64,000 bases of DNA from Bdellovibrionales bacterium (GTDB lineage: Bacteria > Bdellovibrionota > Bdellovibrionia > Bdellovibrionales > UBA1609), in NCBI GenBank assembly GCA_965219095.1, contig CBDCMT010000001.1, forward strand, positions 1,152,001-1,216,000, written 5' to 3'. The translations under genes were made by a program, and so were the position numbers. The notes under the pieces are model-generated. The model saw nothing but the letters and a program-made list of their open reading frames with translations, ran no database searches and was not told the DNA's origin. Every line of letters begins with the position of its first letter. Positions within the stretch are counted from its first letter, which is position 1. Positions 10,107 through 60,656 of this stretch are shown here, piece by piece.

Positions 10107-13100
10107 TTGAAAAATTTTAAAAAAAAGTATCTTGTTGCTTTATCCTCTATGTTGGCTCATCAAGCCTTTGCAGGTTTTATGTCTTTAAACCCTCTGTTCC
10201 ATCCCTTAGCTAATGATTTAGTTTGCAACGAAGAAACAAAATTTCTTTGCAAAAAAATAGGCTTAAAGAAAGAAGAAGTTATTGATACAGAAAAACTTCT
10301 CAGCCAATCAGACTTCAAAATAGACTACTCCCTTTTTAATCCTAAGGAGAGTGATATTTGGAAAAATAGAAAGCCTATTAAAATTTCTAATCCTCGTTTA
10401 ATAGAAGATCATAAGAAGGTTAAATTTAGAGAAGTGTCTCCTGTGGGATCTGGCATGTTTCGATTTCTTATAGAAGATAAAAAGGGACAGCAATATCGTT
10501 TTATTATTGGAAGGAAGTCTCACAATATTTTATTACGGCGGGCCCTTCTAAGAAAGCTGGGATATATCGTTCCTGATTCCAGTCACGTTAAAAAAGTGTC
10601 CGTTGAATTCAAAAACTCTGTAGCATGGAGGACTTTTCTAAAAAACATGTCCTACGGTGTAGGAACTTCTAACTTATCTAGATGGGTGACTAATATAGAT
10701 AAAAAATCTCTGGAAGATCATCCAGACAAAACAAAATGGGTTATCAGAAAAGAAGCCTCATATGAGAAGAACACATTAATTCTACAAGATGTTATTGTTA
10801 CAACATCTTGGGATCAACTGTACGATTTATCTATCGTCTTCATTAGTTCTGTTATGAAGAACAGAAGAGTTTTCAATTCTCTTCTGATTCCTTATGCTTT
10901 AGTTGATGTACCAGAAAGTTTCAATAAATTCAATTGGAATATGGGAAAACAAACCAACGAACAAATTTTTTTTAAAAGTGATTTCTTAAAAGACTTTCGT
11001 ATGGGATATGAAGATGGGAAATGGATAGCAAAAAAAATACTTGATCTTGAAAGAAAAGATTTTGAAGACATTGTTAAAGAAGCTGCACTTCCTCAACCTG
11101 TATCTCTTCTAGCTATAGAAAAACTCATTTCTAGGAGGAATTCTTTGTGCCTTATTTTCTTTCCTAATAAACAGTCATGTATTATGGAAATTGATTTTAA
11201 AAAAACAGATCCGCAACATCCTCATCTTTTGAAAAACGGTCGCCTCCTCTTAGATACTAAAAATGGTGATCCTAAAGATTCAGACCATTGGTGGGAGGGT
11301 TATGGCTCTCGATTTTCTTATGGCCCTGATGAAGCTCCTCTTTCACGAAAAGAAATGACAGCCTTTTTTACATCTCAAATCTTTAGTAATCTTATCTCTA
11401 ATTTTGTAAGTGATATCAACAAAGATTTTCTCCCTAACTCAGATAACAGTATTCAAAGGAAAGCCTATAAAGAGTATACTGAAGATTATCAAAACCAAAT
11501 CATCGAAAGAATCATGGAGGGTAAAGAACCTAAAAATAGAATCACCTCTCTTAAAAATTGGTCAAAAGATATTCTTTATGTTCGCCTAAATGCTTCTCGA
11601 GATATTATTTTTGGAGGTTATTTAGGAACAAGCCACAACATTCAATTAGTTCACTCTTTTGGATGGGCTGTAGATGCAGGTTGGTTTTTAGGATCTCATG
11701 GTGGTCCTAGGGATCTCTCTCTTTCTGGAAGATCTGGCTTAGCTTACTCAGAAAATTACACGCAAGTCACCCCCTCTATAAGTATAAAAGAGGCCAATAA
11801 GACTCCTTATAAAAACATCTTTGTTCATTTTATGATGAAAAAAGTAAGTGAGAAATTAAACAAGGTAAATGATCTGAAAAAAAAGAAAGAGATGGATTTT
11901 CAAAACAATCCTCAATCTACGAAAAAAATAAAAGAGGAGGAAGAAAAATTAAGAAACGAATTAAGTGAAATTTTAAATGAGCATTTAAAGGTGGGAGAAT
12001 CTTTTATCATTACAAGAAATATAGGACCTTTTGCAGCTTTAAATGCCATTTTATCTATCAGCCCTCATACAAAATTATCTTTGAATTTAAGAAATCAAAT
12101 TACAGAGTTAGAAAGAGTTCATATTCTTAGAAAAGACCAAAATACAGTTCACATTTATTCCTCTAATGCTACTCGTTTTAATTGGGGCTTCACTCTACAA
12201 TTAAGAAAATGGATACCTATTTTTACTTATAAAAATAGAAAGGCCAGATCTGTTCTGAAGCCTGTAAATGTAAAATTCCTTTCTTTAAATATACTTCCAG
12301 ACATCAAAAAAAACCCTGAATTTGAACAAAATTCTATAGTTTTGAAGAACTTTTTTTCTGAACCTTTAAGCACAGAAAATATTTCAGATTTCATTGATGC
12401 GAAAGATTATGTTGAACTATCTAGCCATTTTACAGAAAGTTTCAAAGATTTTAAATTTTTATGGCAATCCTCATCCACTTTAGAGCAAAATAATATTATT
12501 AAAGTAAAAGAATACAAAAATAAGGAGCCTTTTCAAAAAAAATTCATTTGGGCATCTTCAGGTAAAAGGACTGGAGTTAATTATCAAAGTGTATTTCTTG
12601 ATATCTTAAACCATATTATAGAAGAAAATTTAGGCCTTGAAGACATTAATGTGGGATTAACAAACACAAATCGACCTTCAGAAACTATTTTTGGCCATTC
12701 TACAGTCCAGCAGTCTTTCTATGAGGGAGTGATCGAAGAAGAAACACAAAACGTAAAAGAAGCTTTTGTCAACGTTTCTTATCGCTGGAAAGGCTGGGCT
12801 CTTTCTAAAGAAAAGCTGGAAGCATTAATACGCAAACTCAATTCCTTTCAAAAATCCTTACAGGTCAAAACAAACCTTCCACCTCTTCCTATTAGTTCTT
12901 TTTCTCTAACAAATCAGCTTCAACTTTATTCTATCTTTTATAATATTTATATCTATGAAAAAGGAATCCAAAATATAGCTAATTGGGGAAAGCCTTTGGA
13001 CTCACATAAATTAGATAAAAAAAATTATGAAAAAAGAAGATCCGAAAATCTTTACAAACTTTTTGAAATGTATGGAGGTTTTCATAATGTAAATTGTGAT

Positions 13101-13496
13101 CATACTGAATCTTTTAGTATGGGAGGAGATTGCTACTTGTATGCTAAACGACGTCTCATCGATGCTTTCAAAAAGGCTCAAGATCTTTACCAAAAAACTA
13201 TAAAAACAAGCCAATATAAAAAAATAGCAAGAACTACATTAAATATGACTCTGGCACTTGAGCCGATAAATTTTGATGGTCTGATCAATGCAATAGGAGG
13301 AAGTACTCATATTTACACAAAAACAGGTGCTTTTGGCTATAGAGAAGGGGATGAAGGCAATCACAAACCTATTTTTGGAAATTCGAAAGGAAAGCTCCCA
13401 GAACAAAAAAATTTAGGTCCTATTCAACACACTCGTAATAGATTAGGAATTTCAGAAGGCGAGCTTTATCTTTATTGGCTTTTAAGGAGGCTTTAA
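10107..13496 (+). CDS. Large secreted hypothetical protein (1129 aa)
   Basis: Signal peptide ending QAFA; long uninterrupted ORF; adjacent to an S8 protease gene. Confidence 0.85.
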   Translation: MKNFKKKYLVALSSMLAHQAFAGFMSLNPLFHPLANDLVCNEETKFLCKKIGLKKEEVIDTEKLLSQSDFKIDYSLFNPKESDIWKNRKPIKISNPRLIEDHKKVKFREVSPVGSGMFRFLIEDKKGQQYRFIIGRKSHNILLRRALLRKLGYIVPDSSHVKKVSVEFKNSVAWRTFLKNMSYGVGTSNLSRWVTNIDKKSLEDHPDKTKWVIRKEASYEKNTLILQDVIVTTSWDQLYDLSIVFISSVMKNRRVFNSLLIPYALVDVPESFNKFNWNMGKQTNEQIFFKSDFLKDFRMGYEDGKWIAKKILDLERKDFEDIVKEAALPQPVSLLAIEKLISRRNSLCLIFFPNKQSCIMEIDFKKTDPQHPHLLKNGRLLLDTKNGDPKDSDHWWEGYGSRFSYGPDEAPLSRKEMTAFFTSQIFSNLISNFVSDINKDFLPNSDNSIQRKAYKEYTEDYQNQIIERIMEGKEPKNRITSLKNWSKDILYVRLNASRDIIFGGYLGTSHNIQLVHSFGWAVDAGWFLGSHGGPRDLSLSGRSGLAYSENYTQVTPSISIKEANKTPYKNIFVHFMMKKVSEKLNKVNDLKKKKEMDFQNNPQSTKKIKEEEEKLRNELSEILNEHLKVGESFIITRNIGPFAALNAILSISPHTKLSLNLRNQITELERVHILRKDQNTVHIYSSNATRFNWGFTLQLRKWIPIFTYKNRKARSVLKPVNVKFLSLNILPDIKKNPEFEQNSIVLKNFFSEPLSTENISDFIDAKDYVELSSHFTESFKDFKFLWQSSSTLEQNNIIKVKEYKNKEPFQKKFIWASSGKRTGVNYQSVFLDILNHIIEENLGLEDINVGLTNTNRPSETIFGHSTVQQSFYEGVIEEETQNVKEAFVNVSYRWKGWALSKEKLEALIRKLNSFQKSLQVKTNLPPLPISSFSLTNQLQLYSIFYNIYIYEKGIQNIANWGKPLDSHKLDKKNYEKRRSENLYKLFEMYGGFHNVNCDHTESFSMGGDCYLYAKRRLIDAFKKAQDLYQKTIKTSQYKKIARTTLNMTLALEPINFDGLINAIGGSTHIYTKTGAFGYREGDEGNHKPIFGNSKGKLPEQKNLGPIQHTRNRLGISEGELYLYWLLRRL

Positions 13497-16400
13497 TGAA
13501 ACAAATGTTAATTTTTATTTTATGTTTTTTTTTTCTCTCTCTTCCTGCAACCATAAAACCTCATAGTAATTTTAACCCATACTTCAATGATCCTTTTTTT
13601 GTTTACCAATGGGGGCTTTCAGCTCAAAATCAAATTTTTATCAAAGATTTAACTGACATTAAATCAAAAAAAATTCATATTTCCCCAAAAGCTTCTATTG
13701 GTTTTTTTGAACCCCATAACCAGCCACTCACAGCTAAAATGAAAAAGGAAGTGGTGGTTGCTGTCATAGATTCTGGTTTAGATATATCTCATAAAGATTT
13801 AAAAGGAACTATATCTTTAAGCTCAGATTGTAACGAACTCCACCTCCCTCCAACTGGAAAAGCCCACGACATCAAAGACAAGGATAAGAATGGTTACAGG
13901 GGGGATTGTATGGGATGGAACTTTTCCGTTAAAGATGGAAACAACAAAGTTTACGATGATAAGGGACATGGAACTCACGTATCTAGCATCATATCAGCAA
14001 CTTCTAATAATGATGAAGGAATTGCAAGCCTCTCTGCACAAATTAAAATTCTACCCATTAAAATTTTTCGCAACACAACAGAAAAAGAGAAATCTACATA
14101 TAGAGAAGAAAAAGAAAACTATAGTATTGATTTTTCAGAAAACATCATCAAAAAAGCCATAGATTATGCAGTTTCTAAAAATGTTGATGTTATTAATATG
14201 AGTTTTGGTTGGCCTTTGGTGATTCAACATCCTTCTTTAACAGAATCCCTTCAAAAAGCTCTTGATAAAAATATTACAATTGTTGCTGCTGCGGGAAACA
14301 GCCACCACAATGCCTTTATTTTACCATGTGCTATTGAGGGAGTTTTATGCGTGGGTGCTTCAAATGGACTAGGAAAATTAGCAGAATTTTCTAATTATGG
14401 AGGCCATGTGGATCTCTTAGCTCCAGGAGAAGAAATTTTTGGAGCCCTTCCTCTATCACAAGCCACATATGAAAGAACTTTTTCTATTCCAGGCTATGGT
14501 CCTTTGACGGGAACAAGCCAAGCAGCACCTTGGGTTTCATCTGCTGTTGCTTTTTTAAAAGGAATTTTCCCTCAAATTCAAAATGATGAAATTAAAGCCA
14601 GATTATTTCTAAGTTCCTCTCATTTTGACGAACACAAAAAAACTCTTCATGGACTTTTTAATTTAAAAAAAGCAATTGAAGTCAAAAAAAACCCCGTTAT
14701 AAGACCTATATTTAAAAGTCAGAAGGAAGTGGAATTGATAAATGGTCAAGCTAAAATAAAATTTAAATTAAAAAATTACTGGGAGACGACAAAAAATTCT
14801 ATCAAGATTTCTGTTTCAACAATAGATCCCCCTATTCAAAAGTATAGTTTTACGTATCCACAAGGTTTAAAAAACAAAGAGATCAAAACGATTTCCTTTA
14901 ATCTTTCTCTTCCCTATGAATGGGTACATAGCAAGATTTCTCTTCTTGTCTCCATTCAAGAGGGAGATGGTAAAAAAGAAGATTTTTTTCATGAAGTGGA
15001 TGTTTTTAAAAGCTTTCAACTATTTTCTTCACAAAAAATATCAATCCCAATTAATCATGAAATTCAACTTTTATTAAAAGAACGTTTTAAAAGTAAAAGG
15101 GGCATTACACCTTTCTTTGAAATAGGGAAACCTTCAGGATCTCCTAGTTATTATTTAACCAAAACTGAAGAAGGGGGAACAAAAGTTTTTATTTGGAAAA
15201 AAGGGAGATACGGCCTTGATCTCAAAGAGGTTTTTATTCCTAATCTATTAAATGGACAAGGAACACTATCCCCTTCTCTTATTAAATATGACTTTAATCA
15301 TGACGGGAAAGATGATTATCTTATTAGCGGGCTTTCAAAAAAACATGATGAGTCTAATAAAGATTTTGAACAAACTGTTTTATTTTCTTTTTTCGATCAC
15401 AACCTGGAACCTCTATTTAAAAACATTTCTCATCATTGGAAACAAAAATTTCAAAGAATAGTTTTTAGATGGGAGAATCCTAAAGTGAGATTTTTAACTT
15501 ATTCTTTTGAAGGTGAGAAGATAAGCCTTCCTTTTCTTATAGGAAGAAATTACCCTCCTGAAAAAGATCTTCTTACACATCCAGATGATGCTTTTTTAAA
15601 TAGGAATAGAAATTATATTTTCTATTTACATCCTGTCATTAAAAGAAATTCCCAAGGTAATGAGGAGGTAATTTTAGAAGAAAGGATTCTAGATTCTTAT
15701 CATTTCATGAAAAACTTAAAAGAAAAATTAACTCTACACCAAAAATCAGAGAAAAATATCCCTGAAAATCTAAATGCTGAAAACCCTCTAACTACCTTAC
15801 AGTTTCTTTCTTTGTTTCCTCAAAAAAACAAGGAAGAATTAAAGGGTCTTCTAGCTATAGGGGAGGGGGGAAGCAAAAAATACTACATCATTCACTGGAA
15901 AAGTAAGTTTTTAGAAAATAACTTTAAAGAAGCAGATTATGACATACGCAGCTTAGATTATGGAAATAAAAAATTAGATGGAAACACACTTCAAACTCTC
16001 TTTCGCATTTCTAAAGACAAGGTTCTTCCTTCGGAATCTTATGTCTTTATTCGACATTACAAAGATTTAGAAAAGCCCTCAAGAGTACTCATAAGTGGAT
16101 CAGAGAATAACTCTAAAACTGCTAGTGTGTTTACCCCTTCCTTTAAAAATAAAAGTGATAGGTTGACTTACTTTAAAAAAGCGTATGAAACAGATGAGCA
16201 TTACATTGTTTTTTATGAATCTCAAAATCAAATTATAGCAAAAACTATACCTCTTTCAAAAAAAGACAACTTAGAAAACTTTACAAGAGAAAATAAAGAG
16301 GGAAAAACTTTCTTTAAGCGAGTCATTCGCTCCGCTCTATTTCCAGATGTCTTTTTTAGCGAAAGACTTTCTCCTTTAGTGATTAAGAGAGGGACAGTTT

Positions 16401-16645
16401 TAAAACCAGCTCTATATGTCAATGCATCAGAAATCTACTCTCAAAAAGTTTTCCTTTGGTTCCTTGATGAACACAAGGGAGAATTTTTTGCACCTATAAA
16501 GTACAGCCTTAAAGTTCCTAAAAATTGTCTTAGTTTAAAACCTACTCCTTACGGCGAAGGTGATGAATATAAAGCAGTTTTTATGTGCCAAAGAAAAAAA
16601 GACTCCAACATCTTTTGGACCCTTTATTATTACACTTTTAATTAG
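13496..16645 (+). CDS. Secreted S8 (subtilase) serine protease with long C-terminal extension
   Basis: VAVIDSG, HGTHV, AAAGN and GTSQAAP catalytic motifs; DFNHDGKDD motif; probable ATG at 13496 overlaps the upstream stop. Confidence 0.92.
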   Translation: MKQMLIFILCFFFLSLPATIKPHSNFNPYFNDPFFVYQWGLSAQNQIFIKDLTDIKSKKIHISPKASIGFFEPHNQPLTAKMKKEVVVAVIDSGLDISHKDLKGTISLSSDCNELHLPPTGKAHDIKDKDKNGYRGDCMGWNFSVKDGNNKVYDDKGHGTHVSSIISATSNNDEGIASLSAQIKILPIKIFRNTTEKEKSTYREEKENYSIDFSENIIKKAIDYAVSKNVDVINMSFGWPLVIQHPSLTESLQKALDKNITIVAAAGNSHHNAFILPCAIEGVLCVGASNGLGKLAEFSNYGGHVDLLAPGEEIFGALPLSQATYERTFSIPGYGPLTGTSQAAPWVSSAVAFLKGIFPQIQNDEIKARLFLSSSHFDEHKKTLHGLFNLKKAIEVKKNPVIRPIFKSQKEVELINGQAKIKFKLKNYWETTKNSIKISVSTIDPPIQKYSFTYPQGLKNKEIKTISFNLSLPYEWVHSKISLLVSIQEGDGKKEDFFHEVDVFKSFQLFSSQKISIPINHEIQLLLKERFKSKRGITPFFEIGKPSGSPSYYLTKTEEGGTKVFIWKKGRYGLDLKEVFIPNLLNGQGTLSPSLIKYDFNHDGKDDYLISGLSKKHDESNKDFEQTVLFSFFDHNLEPLFKNISHHWKQKFQRIVFRWENPKVRFLTYSFEGEKISLPFLIGRNYPPEKDLLTHPDDAFLNRNRNYIFYLHPVIKRNSQGNEEVILEERILDSYHFMKNLKEKLTLHQKSEKNIPENLNAENPLTTLQFLSLFPQKNKEELKGLLAIGEGGSKKYYIIHWKSKFLENNFKEADYDIRSLDYGNKKLDGNTLQTLFRISKDKVLPSESYVFIRHYKDLEKPSRVLISGSENNSKTASVFTPSFKNKSDRLTYFKKAYETDEHYIVFYESQNQIIAKTIPLSKKDNLENFTRENKEGKTFFKRVIRSALFPDVFFSERLSPLVIKRGTVLKPALYVNASEIYSQKVFLWFLDEHKGEFFAPIKYSLKVPKNCLSLKPTPYGEGDEYKAVFMCQRKKDSNIFWTLYYYTFN

Positions 16646-16799
16646 GGCATGTCGTCAATTAATCTAACCAAACCATAAAGAAGCTAACATAACTTAAAGC
16701 TAAGAAGTGTTTTCTCTTTTTGATAGACATACCGGGAGACCTTTGAGTGCATATTGATAACAATTACAGAAATTAATTCGACGGTAAATCAAAAAGACA

Positions 16800-16917
16800 G
16801 GTCACTGGTTTAAGCCATGATAGTGACCCTAAAGTACTTGCAGAAGGAGGTGAGCTTTTCGAGACAAATTCTAAACCCTTTAGCTGGCCTGGTTTTTAAG
16901 GCCTCAAAGGGAAAAGC
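16800..16917 (+). ncRNA. Structured 5' non-coding region of the IS110 element
   Basis: Stems GGTCACT/AGTGACC, GCTTTTC/GAAAAGC, CCCTTT/AAAGGG, GGCCT/AGGCC; second copy near 53612-53729. Confidence 0.5.
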
Positions 16918-16985
16918 AAAAAAAAGATGTAAAATAGGATTTCAAGACTTTATTTATAAATAAACCAACAAAGGAGGAAAATAAA

Positions 16986-19454
16986 ATGTATGATCACTAT
17001 ATAGCCGTAGATTGGGCACAAAGTAACATGGCCATTTCAAGGATGACAGGCAAATCAAAAGATATTAAGAAAGACTATGGACACGATTTCAGATCTTGGG
17101 AATCTTCGTGCCTATTTAAAAACTCTGAAAGGTAAGAAGATATTGACTATCGAAGAGACTACAACTTCGATAGTGGTTGTATTCAGAATTAAAGGATAGT
17201 GTTGATGAGTTCATAGTCTGTGATCCTCTTCGGAACAAACTTTTAAGTGAAGGGGCTAAAACTGATAAAATTGATGCTGAAAAACTTGTTTTATTGTTAC
17301 GCTCTGGCCTTTTGAAACCAGTTTTTCACTCAGGTGATGAATTCATTTACCTTCGTAAGATTGTCAGTGGGTATGAAGATGTGGTTAAAAGAGGAGTTCG
17401 TGTTAAAAACCAAAGATCAGCTCTGTTTCGAGCTTCCCATCTTGATGCTAAGAAGCAGACTCAATTAAAACGGGCAGAAGAGATATATTTGTTCTAGTGT
17501 TCTGACCAGTAAATTTTTTCACAATTTTCAAGCCTTTAATCCAGGTCATTTTATTAAATTATTTTTATATTAAAAAGAATAAAAGTGAAATGTTTAGAGT
17601 TATACCAATTCCAAAAGTTAATTCTACATTTTCATGTATAAGTTTGGATTTTTACTTCTAGAAATTTATAACTTTTAAGTATGGGTAAAGAGTGTATCAA
17701 ATTCATTGGAAAGATATGATTTTCTAATGTTTATATACAATTTAGTTTACAGGCTCTTACAGGCTCTTACAGGCTCGTCTCATTTTTTATAATGGAACTT
17801 TTCTCTGGCTGATTTTCTTGAAAAATTCCATTTTATTATAATCTTCCGTCTGTTCATAATATTCACCCAAGCCTTGGTTCTTTTTCTTAAAGTTTCTATG
17901 TCAGGTATTCTTGATTTTCCTAAACATTGACGAGAGTACATATTGATTGCAATTTCTGCTTGATTTAACCAACTTCCATGACTCGGAGTATAATGAACCT
18001 CAAAGCGAGACCATAGATGCAAACCTCGATCTTTTCCATAAAAATCAGTAAGACTTTTTTTTCTATGAGTGTTCAAATTATCCATAACTAGAACAATCTT
18101 CTTGGAATCAGAATAATGTCTCTCAACAGAAGATAAAAACTTAGCAAAATCCGGACCTGTCCTTCTCTCTGTTACCTTATTCATATAAAAACCTCTCTTA
18201 GGCTCCACAGCACAGAAAACATTTGCTGTACCCTCTCTTTTATACTCATAATCTACTTTTTTTACTTCCGAGGGATGACAACCCGATGGAGGACGAACAT
18301 CATCAAGTAACTGAAGAGGCTTTTCATCAATACACACAACAGGCTTTCCTTTAATCGGAGGCTTCTCATACACTTTCAAAACATCCTCCATCCTCTCTAT
18401 AAATTCATCATTAAGCTCTGGTACACACCAACTCTTCTGTTGCCAAGGTTTTAGATCATGTTCTAAAAGAATAATCCTAACTTTTTCTTTGCTAATAGAG
18501 TCTACAATCTTGTTTTTTTCTGCCCTCTCTTTAATGAGCTCTAAAGTCCATCGATCAAAGCCCTCCGGAGGATCTGAGCAGACTATAGCTATAATCTTTG
18601 ACTTTATGCGATCATCAAACTTTGGAGGTTTTCCAGGACGAGGATCATCTTCAAGAGCTTTTTTCAGCCCAGAATTCTCATAGTTTTTTTGGATGTTGAA
18701 AACAGTTCTAGGAGTTATCTCTAAGTAATCTGCTGTCTCTATGGCAGTTAAATTTTTGTTCCTTAAGTTTAGAACATTGGCTCGATATATGGCTCTTGGA
18801 TTTTTAGACTTCTTTATAATTTTAAGAATTTCTCTCTTATCTTTTGGCTTTAATAAATTTAACATATGAGTATTAAAACATAAAAAAAAAATAAATAAAA
18901 TGACCTGGATTAAAGGCTTGAAAATTATGAAAAAAATTACTGGTCAGAACACTAGAAGGCTTAGATAAAGCTATCAGTTCTTATGGGGAGGAGAAAGCAC
19001 GTTATGAAGCAGAGTTTAAGAGGCTAAGTAAAAAACACAAAGATATTAGAAATCTTAATAGCATTCCAGGAATTGGTTCTATCAAGGCTATCAAGATTGT
19101 AGCCAGGGTTGTAGTGCCTCACCGATTTAAACGTAATTTCTGGTGGAGTGGACTGCGGACTTGTAAAGCTACATAAAATGAGTGGTGGAAGGTCTTATGG
19201 AACTAAGAAGTCTAGATTTTGTCCACAAATGAAAAGTGTTTTTAAGATAGCTGCACTCTCAGTTATAGGAAATAACAATGAATTTAATGATTTTTATGAA
19301 GAATTGATCAAAAAAAATTTACCACCACACACTGCTAGAAACGCTACCAACTAGAAGAATTGCAGCTTTAACTTTAGGTGTTTTCAAGTCTGGGAAAAAA
19401 TATAAACCTTATGGAGAACGTAAAAATGTAAATAATAATAAAACAACCTTATAA
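16986..19454 (+). pseudogene. IS110-family DEDD recombinase, frameshifted and split by an IS630 insertion
   Basis: YIAVDWAQ, TIEE, KTDKIDA, SIPGIG, KMSGG motifs; element spans 16783-19841. Confidence 0.92.
17497..18952 (-). mobile_element. Intact IS630-family element type C (transposase 17780..18865)
   Basis: About 60-bp IRs starting GTGTTCTGACCAGTAA; TA duplicated within CTAG (empty site near 54302); CIDEKP, VMDNLNTH, SWLNQAE motifs. Confidence 0.95.
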
Positions 19455-19469
19455 AATCATCTGTTTAAA

Positions 19470-19737
19470 GTTTCTTGCATAGTAAGTAACAATACAAATA
19501 ATGACTTTATGAGGTGAGGATAGATAGCTTAATAAAAATGATATTTATAAAAAATTCATTTCGACGAATAGCACATCCTCTATTCCTAAAATTTACTATA
19601 ATCTAAGGTTTTAAATCTTTGGAATAAATTCATGATTTAAAACTAAAAAAGGTTCATATAGACGAATAATAGGAATATGTTTGTTTTACAATGTGTAAAG
19701 GAAGAGTCATTAAAAAATGGAAAGGAAATGCAGGAAG
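19470..19737 (+). ncRNA. Candidate bridge/seekRNA in the IS110 3' non-coding end
   Basis: Nested stems TAATGACT/AGTCATTA, GAGGAT/ATCCTC, TATTCCTA/TAGGAATA, GTTTTAAATC/GATTTAAAAC; two internal loops share TTCAT-NNN-GACGAATA. Confidence 0.75.
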
Positions 19738-19820
19738 TTTTTTCTTAGGTGATTAAAATATTCGTGACCGTATGCAAAAAAAATTTTTTATATTTTTTGT
19801 AAATGGAGAAGTGTTTTTTC

Positions 19821-19826
19821 TTGACA
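19821..19826 (+). promoter_or_regulatory. Outward-facing -35 box in the IS110 right end (possible circle-junction promoter half)
   Basis: TTGACA 15 bp before the element end; retained in the 1291-1435 fragment. Confidence 0.5.
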
Positions 19827-20120
19827 TACTTTTTGATAGACACTCTAAAAATTTAACAGAGTTTGATTAAAAAGCCAGAGGCTATGCGTTAAAAGAATGT
19901 CGAATTAATTTTTGGAAATGGTATAATTATAGGCTTTTACTTGAAATGAAAATCAATTACACAATTTGATTGATAGACTTAGGATCTGATTTACAGAATC
20001 TTTACAAACTCTAAGCGGGCTTCCTTATGTTGGCTACCCGCTTTATTTTTTTCTTTAAATCTGTTCTTATGATCACACTACTACTTTTTGAACTCTATAC
20101 ATACAATTTTACTTCGCATA

Positions 20121-21191: not shown

Positions 21192-22850
<1,659 letters not shown>

Positions 22851-58768: not shown

Positions 58769-60656
58769 TTACTGTACACACTTTTCAAGGGCTTTCGCTA
58801 TTTTTAAACTTCTCTGAGATACTTCTAGAACGCCTTCCGCATATATCTTGCCAGCCTCAGAAAATATTTCTTTATATGACAGAAATAATTCCCCATTAAT
58901 ACTATCATCACAACCTTCACCCTTTTTGCAAAGCTCTGATAGCTGTTGAAACCCATCTGCAAATGTATGAAATATCACTGAGGTCAAGTTCAAAGCTAAA
59001 ACAGTTTCTATCTGTAATGTAATACCAATTACAGAAATTAATTCGACATTTTTATGTTCAAATTTAAAATTTTAAAATTGACTTAAGGAAAAGTTTCAAT
59101 TAGGAGGCTTTAAAAAAGTTTTTTTTGAAGGGAGGTTGAGTTTTCATAAGATATGTTTATTTTATGTATATCTATTGTTGTGTGAATCGATTGATGGGTT
59201 AAAATAAGTGTAAAAAAGTGAGGTTAAGATGTAAAATGAAAAAAATCAGTTACGCAATTTAATTTATAGGTTCAAATTAATTTACAAGCTTGATTCATCT
59301 TGTTGTTTTGCCCAAGATCGAGTGCATAATTTTTTAATCCTGCCCTCCTGATCGCAAAAAGTATTCCAGGCCTCACAACAAGTATTCAGTATATGGTCAT
59401 AGTTTTTAAAACATGCATTCGATAATTTGATCCTTCGTAATTGTTGCCAGACTTGTTCCATGGGATTTAATTCTGGACTATAAGGAGGTAAAGGCATCAG
59501 GGATAAATTCTTAGGAACTATCAAAGTCTCTGTGGTATGCCAACTGGCTCTGTCCATTAAAACAATTCCATGATAGTTTTCTTGAATATTTTTAGATATC
59601 TCATCTAAGTGAATTTGCATCATCCCTGAATTACATTCCGGTAAAATCCAAGCACAGCCTTTATCTTTATCCGGACAAACTGCTCCAAAAATATAAGTGG
59701 ATAAAAATTGTCTTTGTCTCACAACTCTAGGTCGTGTGCCTTTTCTTGCCCAAATCCTGCTTAAAGAACCTTGCTGGCCTATTCTGCATTCATCCTGCCA
59801 CCAAATCTCTATTTTATGAGTCTGAATCTTTTCCTTTATTTTCTCCACCTCTTCTGGAAAATGTTCCTTAAACTGTTCCATAGCTTCTTGTGAAGTTTTA
59901 GGATGAAGAGAACGACCACTGATCCATACAATATTAAGACGGTCTAAAAGAGCATAAACCCCAGAAAGAGAATAGCAACAGTCAAATTCATTTGCTAAAA
60001 GTTCCTGTATTCCCTTTGCTCCTATGCTTCCTCCTTCTCTCTTGTCTTGAATTTCATCTAACTTGATTTTGAAGTTCTCTTCTTCTGTCACTGGTAAACG
60101 AGGCTTGCGCCCTCTGCCTTCTCGATCTATCAACCCCTCGTAATCAAAGTCTACAAAAGACTGTAACCAGGATTTGATACTGTGACGGTGATAGAAAACT
60201 ATACTTGCTGTTTCTTGAATCGATTTTCCTTCTTGCATATGCTGCAAAGCTTGGAGTTTTATCTTGATGTTGGCACTTCTTTCTACTTTGTAAGTAGCTA
60301 GAAAATCATACCCTTGAATTTGTGTAACTAAATCTTTTTTCGACACTCTAAAAATTTAACAGAGTTTGATCAAAAAGCCAGGACGCAATGCGTTAAAAGA
60401 ATGTCGAATTAATTTTTGGAAATGGTATAAGGTAGGTATTAGGAAGATTTTTACATGTTACTTCCTCCTCATTTGTTTTGATTCTTTCAAGGCTATCTCT
60501 TGATTCTTGAACCATATTTTTAAGATTTTCTTGTTGCTGTTTTACAAGATCACCAGAGCTAGGATGTGTCATGATTTGTGCCGGTGATATTATACTTAGA
60601 GTCATTACTGCTGAAACGAGTAATGAAGTGGTTAGTAGTTTTTTTGTTGTATTCAT
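58769..60656 (-). pseudogene. Secreted protein gene split by IS630-B
   Basis: Joining 60656-60428 to 59022-58769 gives an in-frame 160-aa ORF with signal peptide. Confidence 0.8.
59023..60427 (-). mobile_element. Intact IS630-family type B element (transposase 59282..60346)
   Basis: Both IRs present; uninterrupted 354-aa DDE transposase; extra 167 bp (59071-59237) relative to the 57459 copy. Confidence 0.95.

Follow-up and report, generated by a model that had tools for sequence, protein, structure and literature searches.

Non-autonomous insertion sequence (IS) derivatives and MITEs, in which two inverted repeats (IRs) of an active IS enclose passenger DNA, are moved in trans. Other mobile elements are directed by guide RNAs. 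The IS621 bridge system has left and right target guides, uses a 2-bp core and leaves no target duplication (PMC11208160, PMC13626964). IS4321 and IS5075, of the IS1111 group, insert into a terminal IR of other mobile elements (Partridge and Hall 2003, cited in PMC11187229 and PMC11208160), and the guide RNA of ISEc21 is aimed at a conserved site in other insertion sequences, those of the IS3 family (PMC11187229). Natural change of bridge/seek RNA guides is poorly documented. The ISEc11/ISXne4 example compares related elements from different organisms, with transposases 72% identical, in which changed guides go with matching changed targets (PMC11187229), and the accessible part of PMC13604230 has nothing on natural guide change.

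The locus described here lies in a 64,000-nucleotide stretch of a Bdellovibrionales genome, the whole of which we call the window. As with IS4321 and IS5075, an IS110 element occupies a terminal IR that belongs to a different mobile element, but here the host is an IS630-like IS (IS630-B) that offers two programmed sites and whose gene is missing from the hybrid lineage. Its guide RNA, like that of ISEc21, is aimed at a conserved site in another IS, whereas the ISEc21 non-coding region is upstream and has one target (PMC11187229). In contrast to the ISEc11/ISXne4 pair, the two guide alleles found here, A and B, differ by three bases within one genome and address the same host element. Compared with IS621, the predicted RNA lies downstream of the gene, its right guide precedes the left, and the right guide has 7-8 nt. 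Unlike the passenger of a MITE, the passenger here is a guide-RNA element that targeted the donor of the IRs. No report of an IS110 element targeting an IS630, or of such a hybrid, appeared in searches of the openly accessible literature. That one IS can target another and that guides change naturally was known before; what is new is that two guide alleles address two sites in the same host IS and give rise to a hybrid that probably hitchhikes.

Results

The genome (3.1 Mb, 34% G+C, two contigs) is crowded with insertion sequences. In the window, an IS110 element occupying 16783-19841 as a whole is enclosed by the two ends of IS630-B (Table 1). The first-pass annotation had located TTCGAC at 59042-59047 and 60339-60344 of an intact IS630-B, assigned the left IS110 junction of the composite to the first motif (site A) and the right junction to the second (site B), and read the IS630 gene as replaced by IS110. 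These positions, the composite coordinates and both junctions are correct, the gene is replaced, and both junctions recur across the genome, too often for chance. In IS630-B, the TTCGAC of site A is the inner end of the 25-bp IR, and that of site B overlaps the start codon. The triplets flanking the window composite are unequal, TGA on the left and TAA on the right.

Four short-read runs from one study, which may include the source sample, were compared with the locus. Contigs of two runs match 15500/16073-16790 without differences, extending 33 letters past the flank-IR joint and 8 past the IR-IS110 joint; one contig matches 19898-20901, 26 letters of it inside the IR, and the joint of the nested element (17493-18952) is present in three of the four runs. 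A joint of 16731 to 19777 was also seen in two runs, with only 22 letters on one side. Elsewhere around the composite, a remnant resembling the IS110 right end lies 28 bp upstream (16704-16729), two large genes precede it (10107-16645; 1129 aa without a Pfam match and a 1056-aa subtilase), and groEL is found at 21192-22835. No subtilase was found beside five homologues of a 244-aa gene, a distance at which the comparison of flank synteny is uninformative.

Table 1 Features of the composite and of the intact target element (window coordinates).
Feature	Position	Strand	Details
IS630-B IR (the one downstream of the gene) to site A	16758..16782	+	differs from the usual IR at 1 position; 2-bp AC core at its end
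IS110 left end	16783..16985	+	8-bp subterminal IR 16789-16796; 60-bp deletion common to 8 copies
IS110 DEDD recombinase pseudogene	16986..19454	+	4 frameshifts, the same in all long copies; split by the nested element
Nested second IS630-family element, IS630-A	17494..18955	-	intact 361-aa transposase 17780-18865; insertion at CTAG
Guide RNA target-binding loop	19506..19600	+	covarying outer stem, central hairpin
Right target guide, allele A	19532..19540	+	reverse complement of 59047-59055 (right half, site A)
Left target guide, common to alleles A and B	19559..19565	+	matches the left half of both sites
Putative donor-binding region	19658..19771	+	left donor guide ~19658-19663, right ~19767-19771; placed by eye from the alignment, unscored
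IS110 right end	19821..19841	+	-35-like hexamer 19821-19826; subterminal IR 19829-19836; 3-bp extension; AC core 19840-19841
IS630-B segment, site B to upstream IR	19842..19923	+	carries the T allele of the composite lineage
Intact IS630-B (target element)	59023..60427	-	354-aa DDE_3/HTH frame 59282-60346; TAA on both sides (3-bp duplication); site A 59042-59054, site B 60339-60351

IS630-B has a DDE_3 and HTH transposase and terminal IRs, as in the IS630 family. Its target duplication is 3 bp, TAA or TTA (59020-59022 and 60428-60430 in the window); the triplets are identical in 60 of 68 copies, against 32 after shuffling (maximum 50), and unequal in the other eight free copies. The IS630 family duplicates the dinucleotide TA; since 3 bp are duplicated instead, we refer to IS630-B as IS630-like. 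The element makes up 3.9% of the genome. Site B is confined to one subfamily, made up of 18 of the 52 single-piece full-length copies; none is younger or more often intact (1.5% divergence, 12 open frames). The other 34 have five mismatches to guide B, and 20 of these also have one to guide A. It had been proposed that IS110 disables IS630, which is true at single loci but not of the family: 68 full-length IS630-B copies remain, the frame is open in 19 of 52 tested, and it is IS110 that is broken in every copy.

Judged from its sequence features, the IS110-family element is a member of the IS1111 group with a predicted guide (bridge/seek) RNA downstream of the recombinase. PF01548 scores above the cut-off in the window, and homologue P0003 has both PF01548 and PF02371, aligned in pieces over residues 5-334. 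The non-coding ends measure about 200-265 bp on the left and about 385 bp on the right, the longer one lying downstream of the gene. The top-strand guide match is 5' of the bottom-strand match and the right guide precedes the left, both as in the IS1111 group (order according to PMC11187229). By eye, the subterminal IR is 8 bp with 6/3 extensions. In the IS1111 group such IRs are usually 11-13 bp, or 7-17 bp in PMC11208160, with extensions of 7 or 6 and 3 bp, so that the 8-bp IR falls within the wider range and short of the usual one. Elements of this group form a promoter where the circle closes; here, a -35-like hexamer is conserved in the IS110 right ends and the -10 is weak; a promoter scan of the linear right end returned nothing above chance. 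The closest homologues come from Bdellovibrionales assemblies, and a metagenome scan gave no homologue above 61%.

No intact recombinase frame is present among the 17 PF01548 matches in the genome, the longest open frame being 149 aa. All long copies carry the same four frameshifts, with no private correcting indel. Long-read error as the source of the frameshifts was considered and rejected: among the matches listed, contigs of the four short-read runs contain no correcting indel. The helper recombinase is either lost or outside the 94%-complete assembly.

We then examined the putative guide RNA. In a fold of 41 dereplicated sequences of the downstream non-coding region, a covarying stem encloses an internal loop, both unpaired strands of which are hypervariable (0.32-0.49 vs 0.79). 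Guides and flanks were compared at 73 of 79 homologous loci, 52 of them with a detectable right end, with two registers allowed in test and control. The right guide matches the right flank at a mean of 6.4 of 7 positions over 35 distinct guides (shuffle 2.65, maximum 3.54), and the left guide matches its flank at 3.78 of 5 over 27 guides (shuffle 1.47, maximum 2.26).

The window guides predict a 13-mer identical to site A, and all 47 exact genomic matches to this allele-A prediction fall in IS630-B. Likewise, the allele-B prediction is identical to site B of the window, with 25 of 25 exact matches in IS630-B. The genome contains 21 target loops, comprising seven of allele A (the window included), nine of allele B (two, in a duplicated segment, with one further change), two of allele X and three disrupted or divergent. 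Alleles A and B have the same left guide and differ at three right-guide bases, exactly where sites A and B differ; no other alignment column separates the seven A from the nine B loops, and no intermediate occurs among these 16. The copies bearing them are about 97-99% identical. The earlier proposal of an RNA-guided element targeting a resident IS630 is thereby supported for IS630-B: the guide itself spells the sites, and single and double insertions exist. Both TTCGAC sites are indeed targeted, but site B is the target of allele B and not a second match of one guide. We dropped the idea that guide A, with three mismatches to site B, reaches that site off target once allele B was found to predict it exactly. 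No insertion was found in the genome in the opposite IR of IS630-B, which has one to three mismatches to guide A.

Among the 11 copies with guide A or B and an A or B flank, the guide disagrees with the present right flank in six, three joining guide A to a B flank (the window included) and three guide B to an A flank, a pattern to be expected from guides acting in trans or from recombination between copies. In allele X (C2:414147 and C2:1014922) both guides are changed, and there is no exact genomic match. Two other recurrent IS110 sites resemble allele X with one-base shifts, one of them in the end of a repeated element with 41 empty copies. Five copies have their RNA broken by another IS of about 1.7 kb, inserted at the 5' border of the right guide of allele B (for example C1:171190-172882 and C1:308830-310527). 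Nine sister copies in one related genome (L080-L089) share a repeated left flank and fall into two variants (5 vs 4) downstream of the recombinase, possibly in the guide.

To survey the genome, a 1,657-bp copy with non-IS630 flanks (C2:602982-601326) served as the BLAST query, and chaining of the resulting pieces gave 78 IS110 instances. Left ends lie at site A in 23, at site B in four and elsewhere in 11, and are missing in 40; the right-end counts are 7, 14, 14 and 43, respectively. Nine pairs have both ends: four AA (two being one duplicated segment), one BB, two AB, one with both ends elsewhere and one A-other. There is an excess of left ends at A and of right ends at B (Fisher p 0.0003, which exaggerates the significance, since the copies are related). 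Joined across the IS110, the flanks of the AA and BB copies restore the IS630-B sites, with no duplication beyond the 2-bp core. At C2:1421796-1423889, one IS630-B holds an IS110 at site A and, at a variant of site B, a second one of which only the left 53 bp are present; this double hit is the predicted double-insertion intermediate. Single insertions at either TTCGAC site, which the first-pass annotation had proposed to look for, are thus present, as is a copy with non-IS630 flanks, but the tabulated copies include no intact recombinase.

Several further rearrangements were observed. The ends of one insertion lie 426 kb apart on opposite strands (C2:1136167 and C2:1562748), a probable inversion between IS110 copies. 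A 91-bp miniature at C2:492428 joins an IS630-B IR, 14 bp of the IS110 left end and the other IS630-B end, as a deletion product of an AB composite. A second, decayed IS1111-type element, with a subterminal IR with 7/3 extensions and a DEDD-like N-terminus, has inserted repeatedly, reversed, in the subterminal IR of the IS110 right end and sometimes of the left end (C1:327067, C1:709980, C2:890874, C2:1136269, C2:1317756, C2:1616979). It also has 36-bp miniature forms, and at C2:602982 IS110 sits inside its right non-coding end, making a chain of parasites.

Markers within the ends bear on the history of the AB hybrids. The T allele is found in 11 of 13 IS110-linked B ends (the BB copy, outside the search pattern, has C), in none of 27 free ends of the same IS630-B subfamily and in 5 of 60 of the other. 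IS110-linked B ends stop at the IS630-B IR and a TNA triplet, and their flanks differ. Seven of the eight copies with the 60-bp left-end deletion have an A left end. All three pairable AB elements (the window, C2:1748054 and a third with separated ends) carry both the deletion and the T allele. The ends of the third, the split insertion described above, fall on one TAA of a multicopy repeat and are now 426 kb apart. No empty site is recovered from the flanks of C2:1748054, the second AB copy that is whole; in a control, 33 of 51 free IS630-B copies were rebuilt, a figure that is indicative only, given the loose matching. The shared derived markers suggest one or a few origins of the AB composites.

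Discussion

Taken from sequence comparison, the most probable reading is that an IS1111-group bridge-RNA element lives as a parasite of the high-copy IS630-B, and that the hybrid arose by recombination of A and B insertions and spread through the IS630-B transposase in trans. IS110 would insert into IS630-B at site A with guide A and at site B with guide B. Two such copies, in the same orientation and near-identical over ~1.6 kb, could then recombine, which would remove the IS630-B gene and leave IR-IS110-IR. The IS630-B transposase would then carry copies of the hybrid to further TNA sites, with the recombinase-dead IS110 as passenger, and later recombination among copies would shuffle guides, ends and flanks. 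Two insertions as the source of the replacement, one of the routes proposed at the outset, fit the A, B and double insertions found. The further proposal that IS110 acquires the IS630 ends fares less evenly: the 60-bp deletion and the T allele support it indirectly and one pair has an empty site, but the triplets of the window composite do not match. Also against the scheme as a whole are the absence of an intact recombinase from the assembly, the frequent mismatch between guide allele and present flank, the flanks of C2:1748054, the T allele in five other-subfamily ends and the nature of the double-hit locus, a truncated second copy at a variant site B.

The other route proposed at the outset, a recombinase-mediated deletion, would have the bridge recombinase join the right junction of an A insertion to site B in cis, through the shared left half and core, and so excise the IS630-B gene. 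That the window and two other B-flanked copies carry guide A speaks for it, for homologous recombination would there need a crossover in the last 300 bp, and half-match boundary use has been reported for IS110 loci (10.64898/2026.08.14.744561), as has excision chemistry (PMC13626964). Three T-lineage copies carry guide B, however, a double-hit host and a BB copy exist, and site B mismatches guide A at three positions, so that we regard this origin as unlikely.

More doubtful still is that the AB pairs are independent hybrids from recombination of IS110 copies at different loci, the composite never having moved as a unit. Exchange between copies is proven by the insertion whose ends lie on opposite strands; moreover, an A-left/other-right hybrid exists, the window triplets are unequal, and only one pair was found among eight ends with multicopy flanks. 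However, exchange is reciprocal and accounts neither for the A-left/B-right excess, nor for 11 T-allele B ends that differ in their flanks and lack a T-allele parent among the 27 free ends, nor for the shared 60-bp deletion. Finally, the alternative feared in the first-pass annotation, that the IS630-like ends are native to IS110 or the junctions misassembled, is very improbable: although no short-read contig among the matches listed spans the whole composite, IS630-B DNA or IS630 transposase protein matches occur at none of 79 homologous IS110 loci, which keep the same native element ends amid unrelated flanks, single insertions at A and B and a copy with non-IS630 flanks exist in the genome, the junctions recur 23 and 14 times, and contigs of two runs match the left joints without difference.

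How the guide changed can be read in two ways. Off-target landing at site B, which matches guide A at 10 of 13 positions, followed by stepwise selection is the conservative route, since re-aiming of ISEc11 required matching changes in flank and guide (PMC11187229). A bolder and rather unlikely possibility is that the landing site served as template: in a guide-A element lying on a B flank, as the window copy does, the right guide would have been converted in one step into the complement of the element's own right flank, 310 bp away. Such rewriting would explain the three concerted changes, the absence of an intermediate among 16 loops and of any linked change elsewhere, and the re-aiming within a lineage already sharing four frameshifts. 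If true, IS110 elements would have a way of acquiring guides that is coupled to hitchhiking on the IS they target.

In this one genome, the two guide forms that a three-base re-aiming step separates occur together with the two target sites, with insertions at one or at both of them and with the hybrid product, which makes the step directly testable. The hybrid would represent a route by which an RNA-guided IS may swap its mechanism, persisting as cargo of the DDE transposase that it targets.
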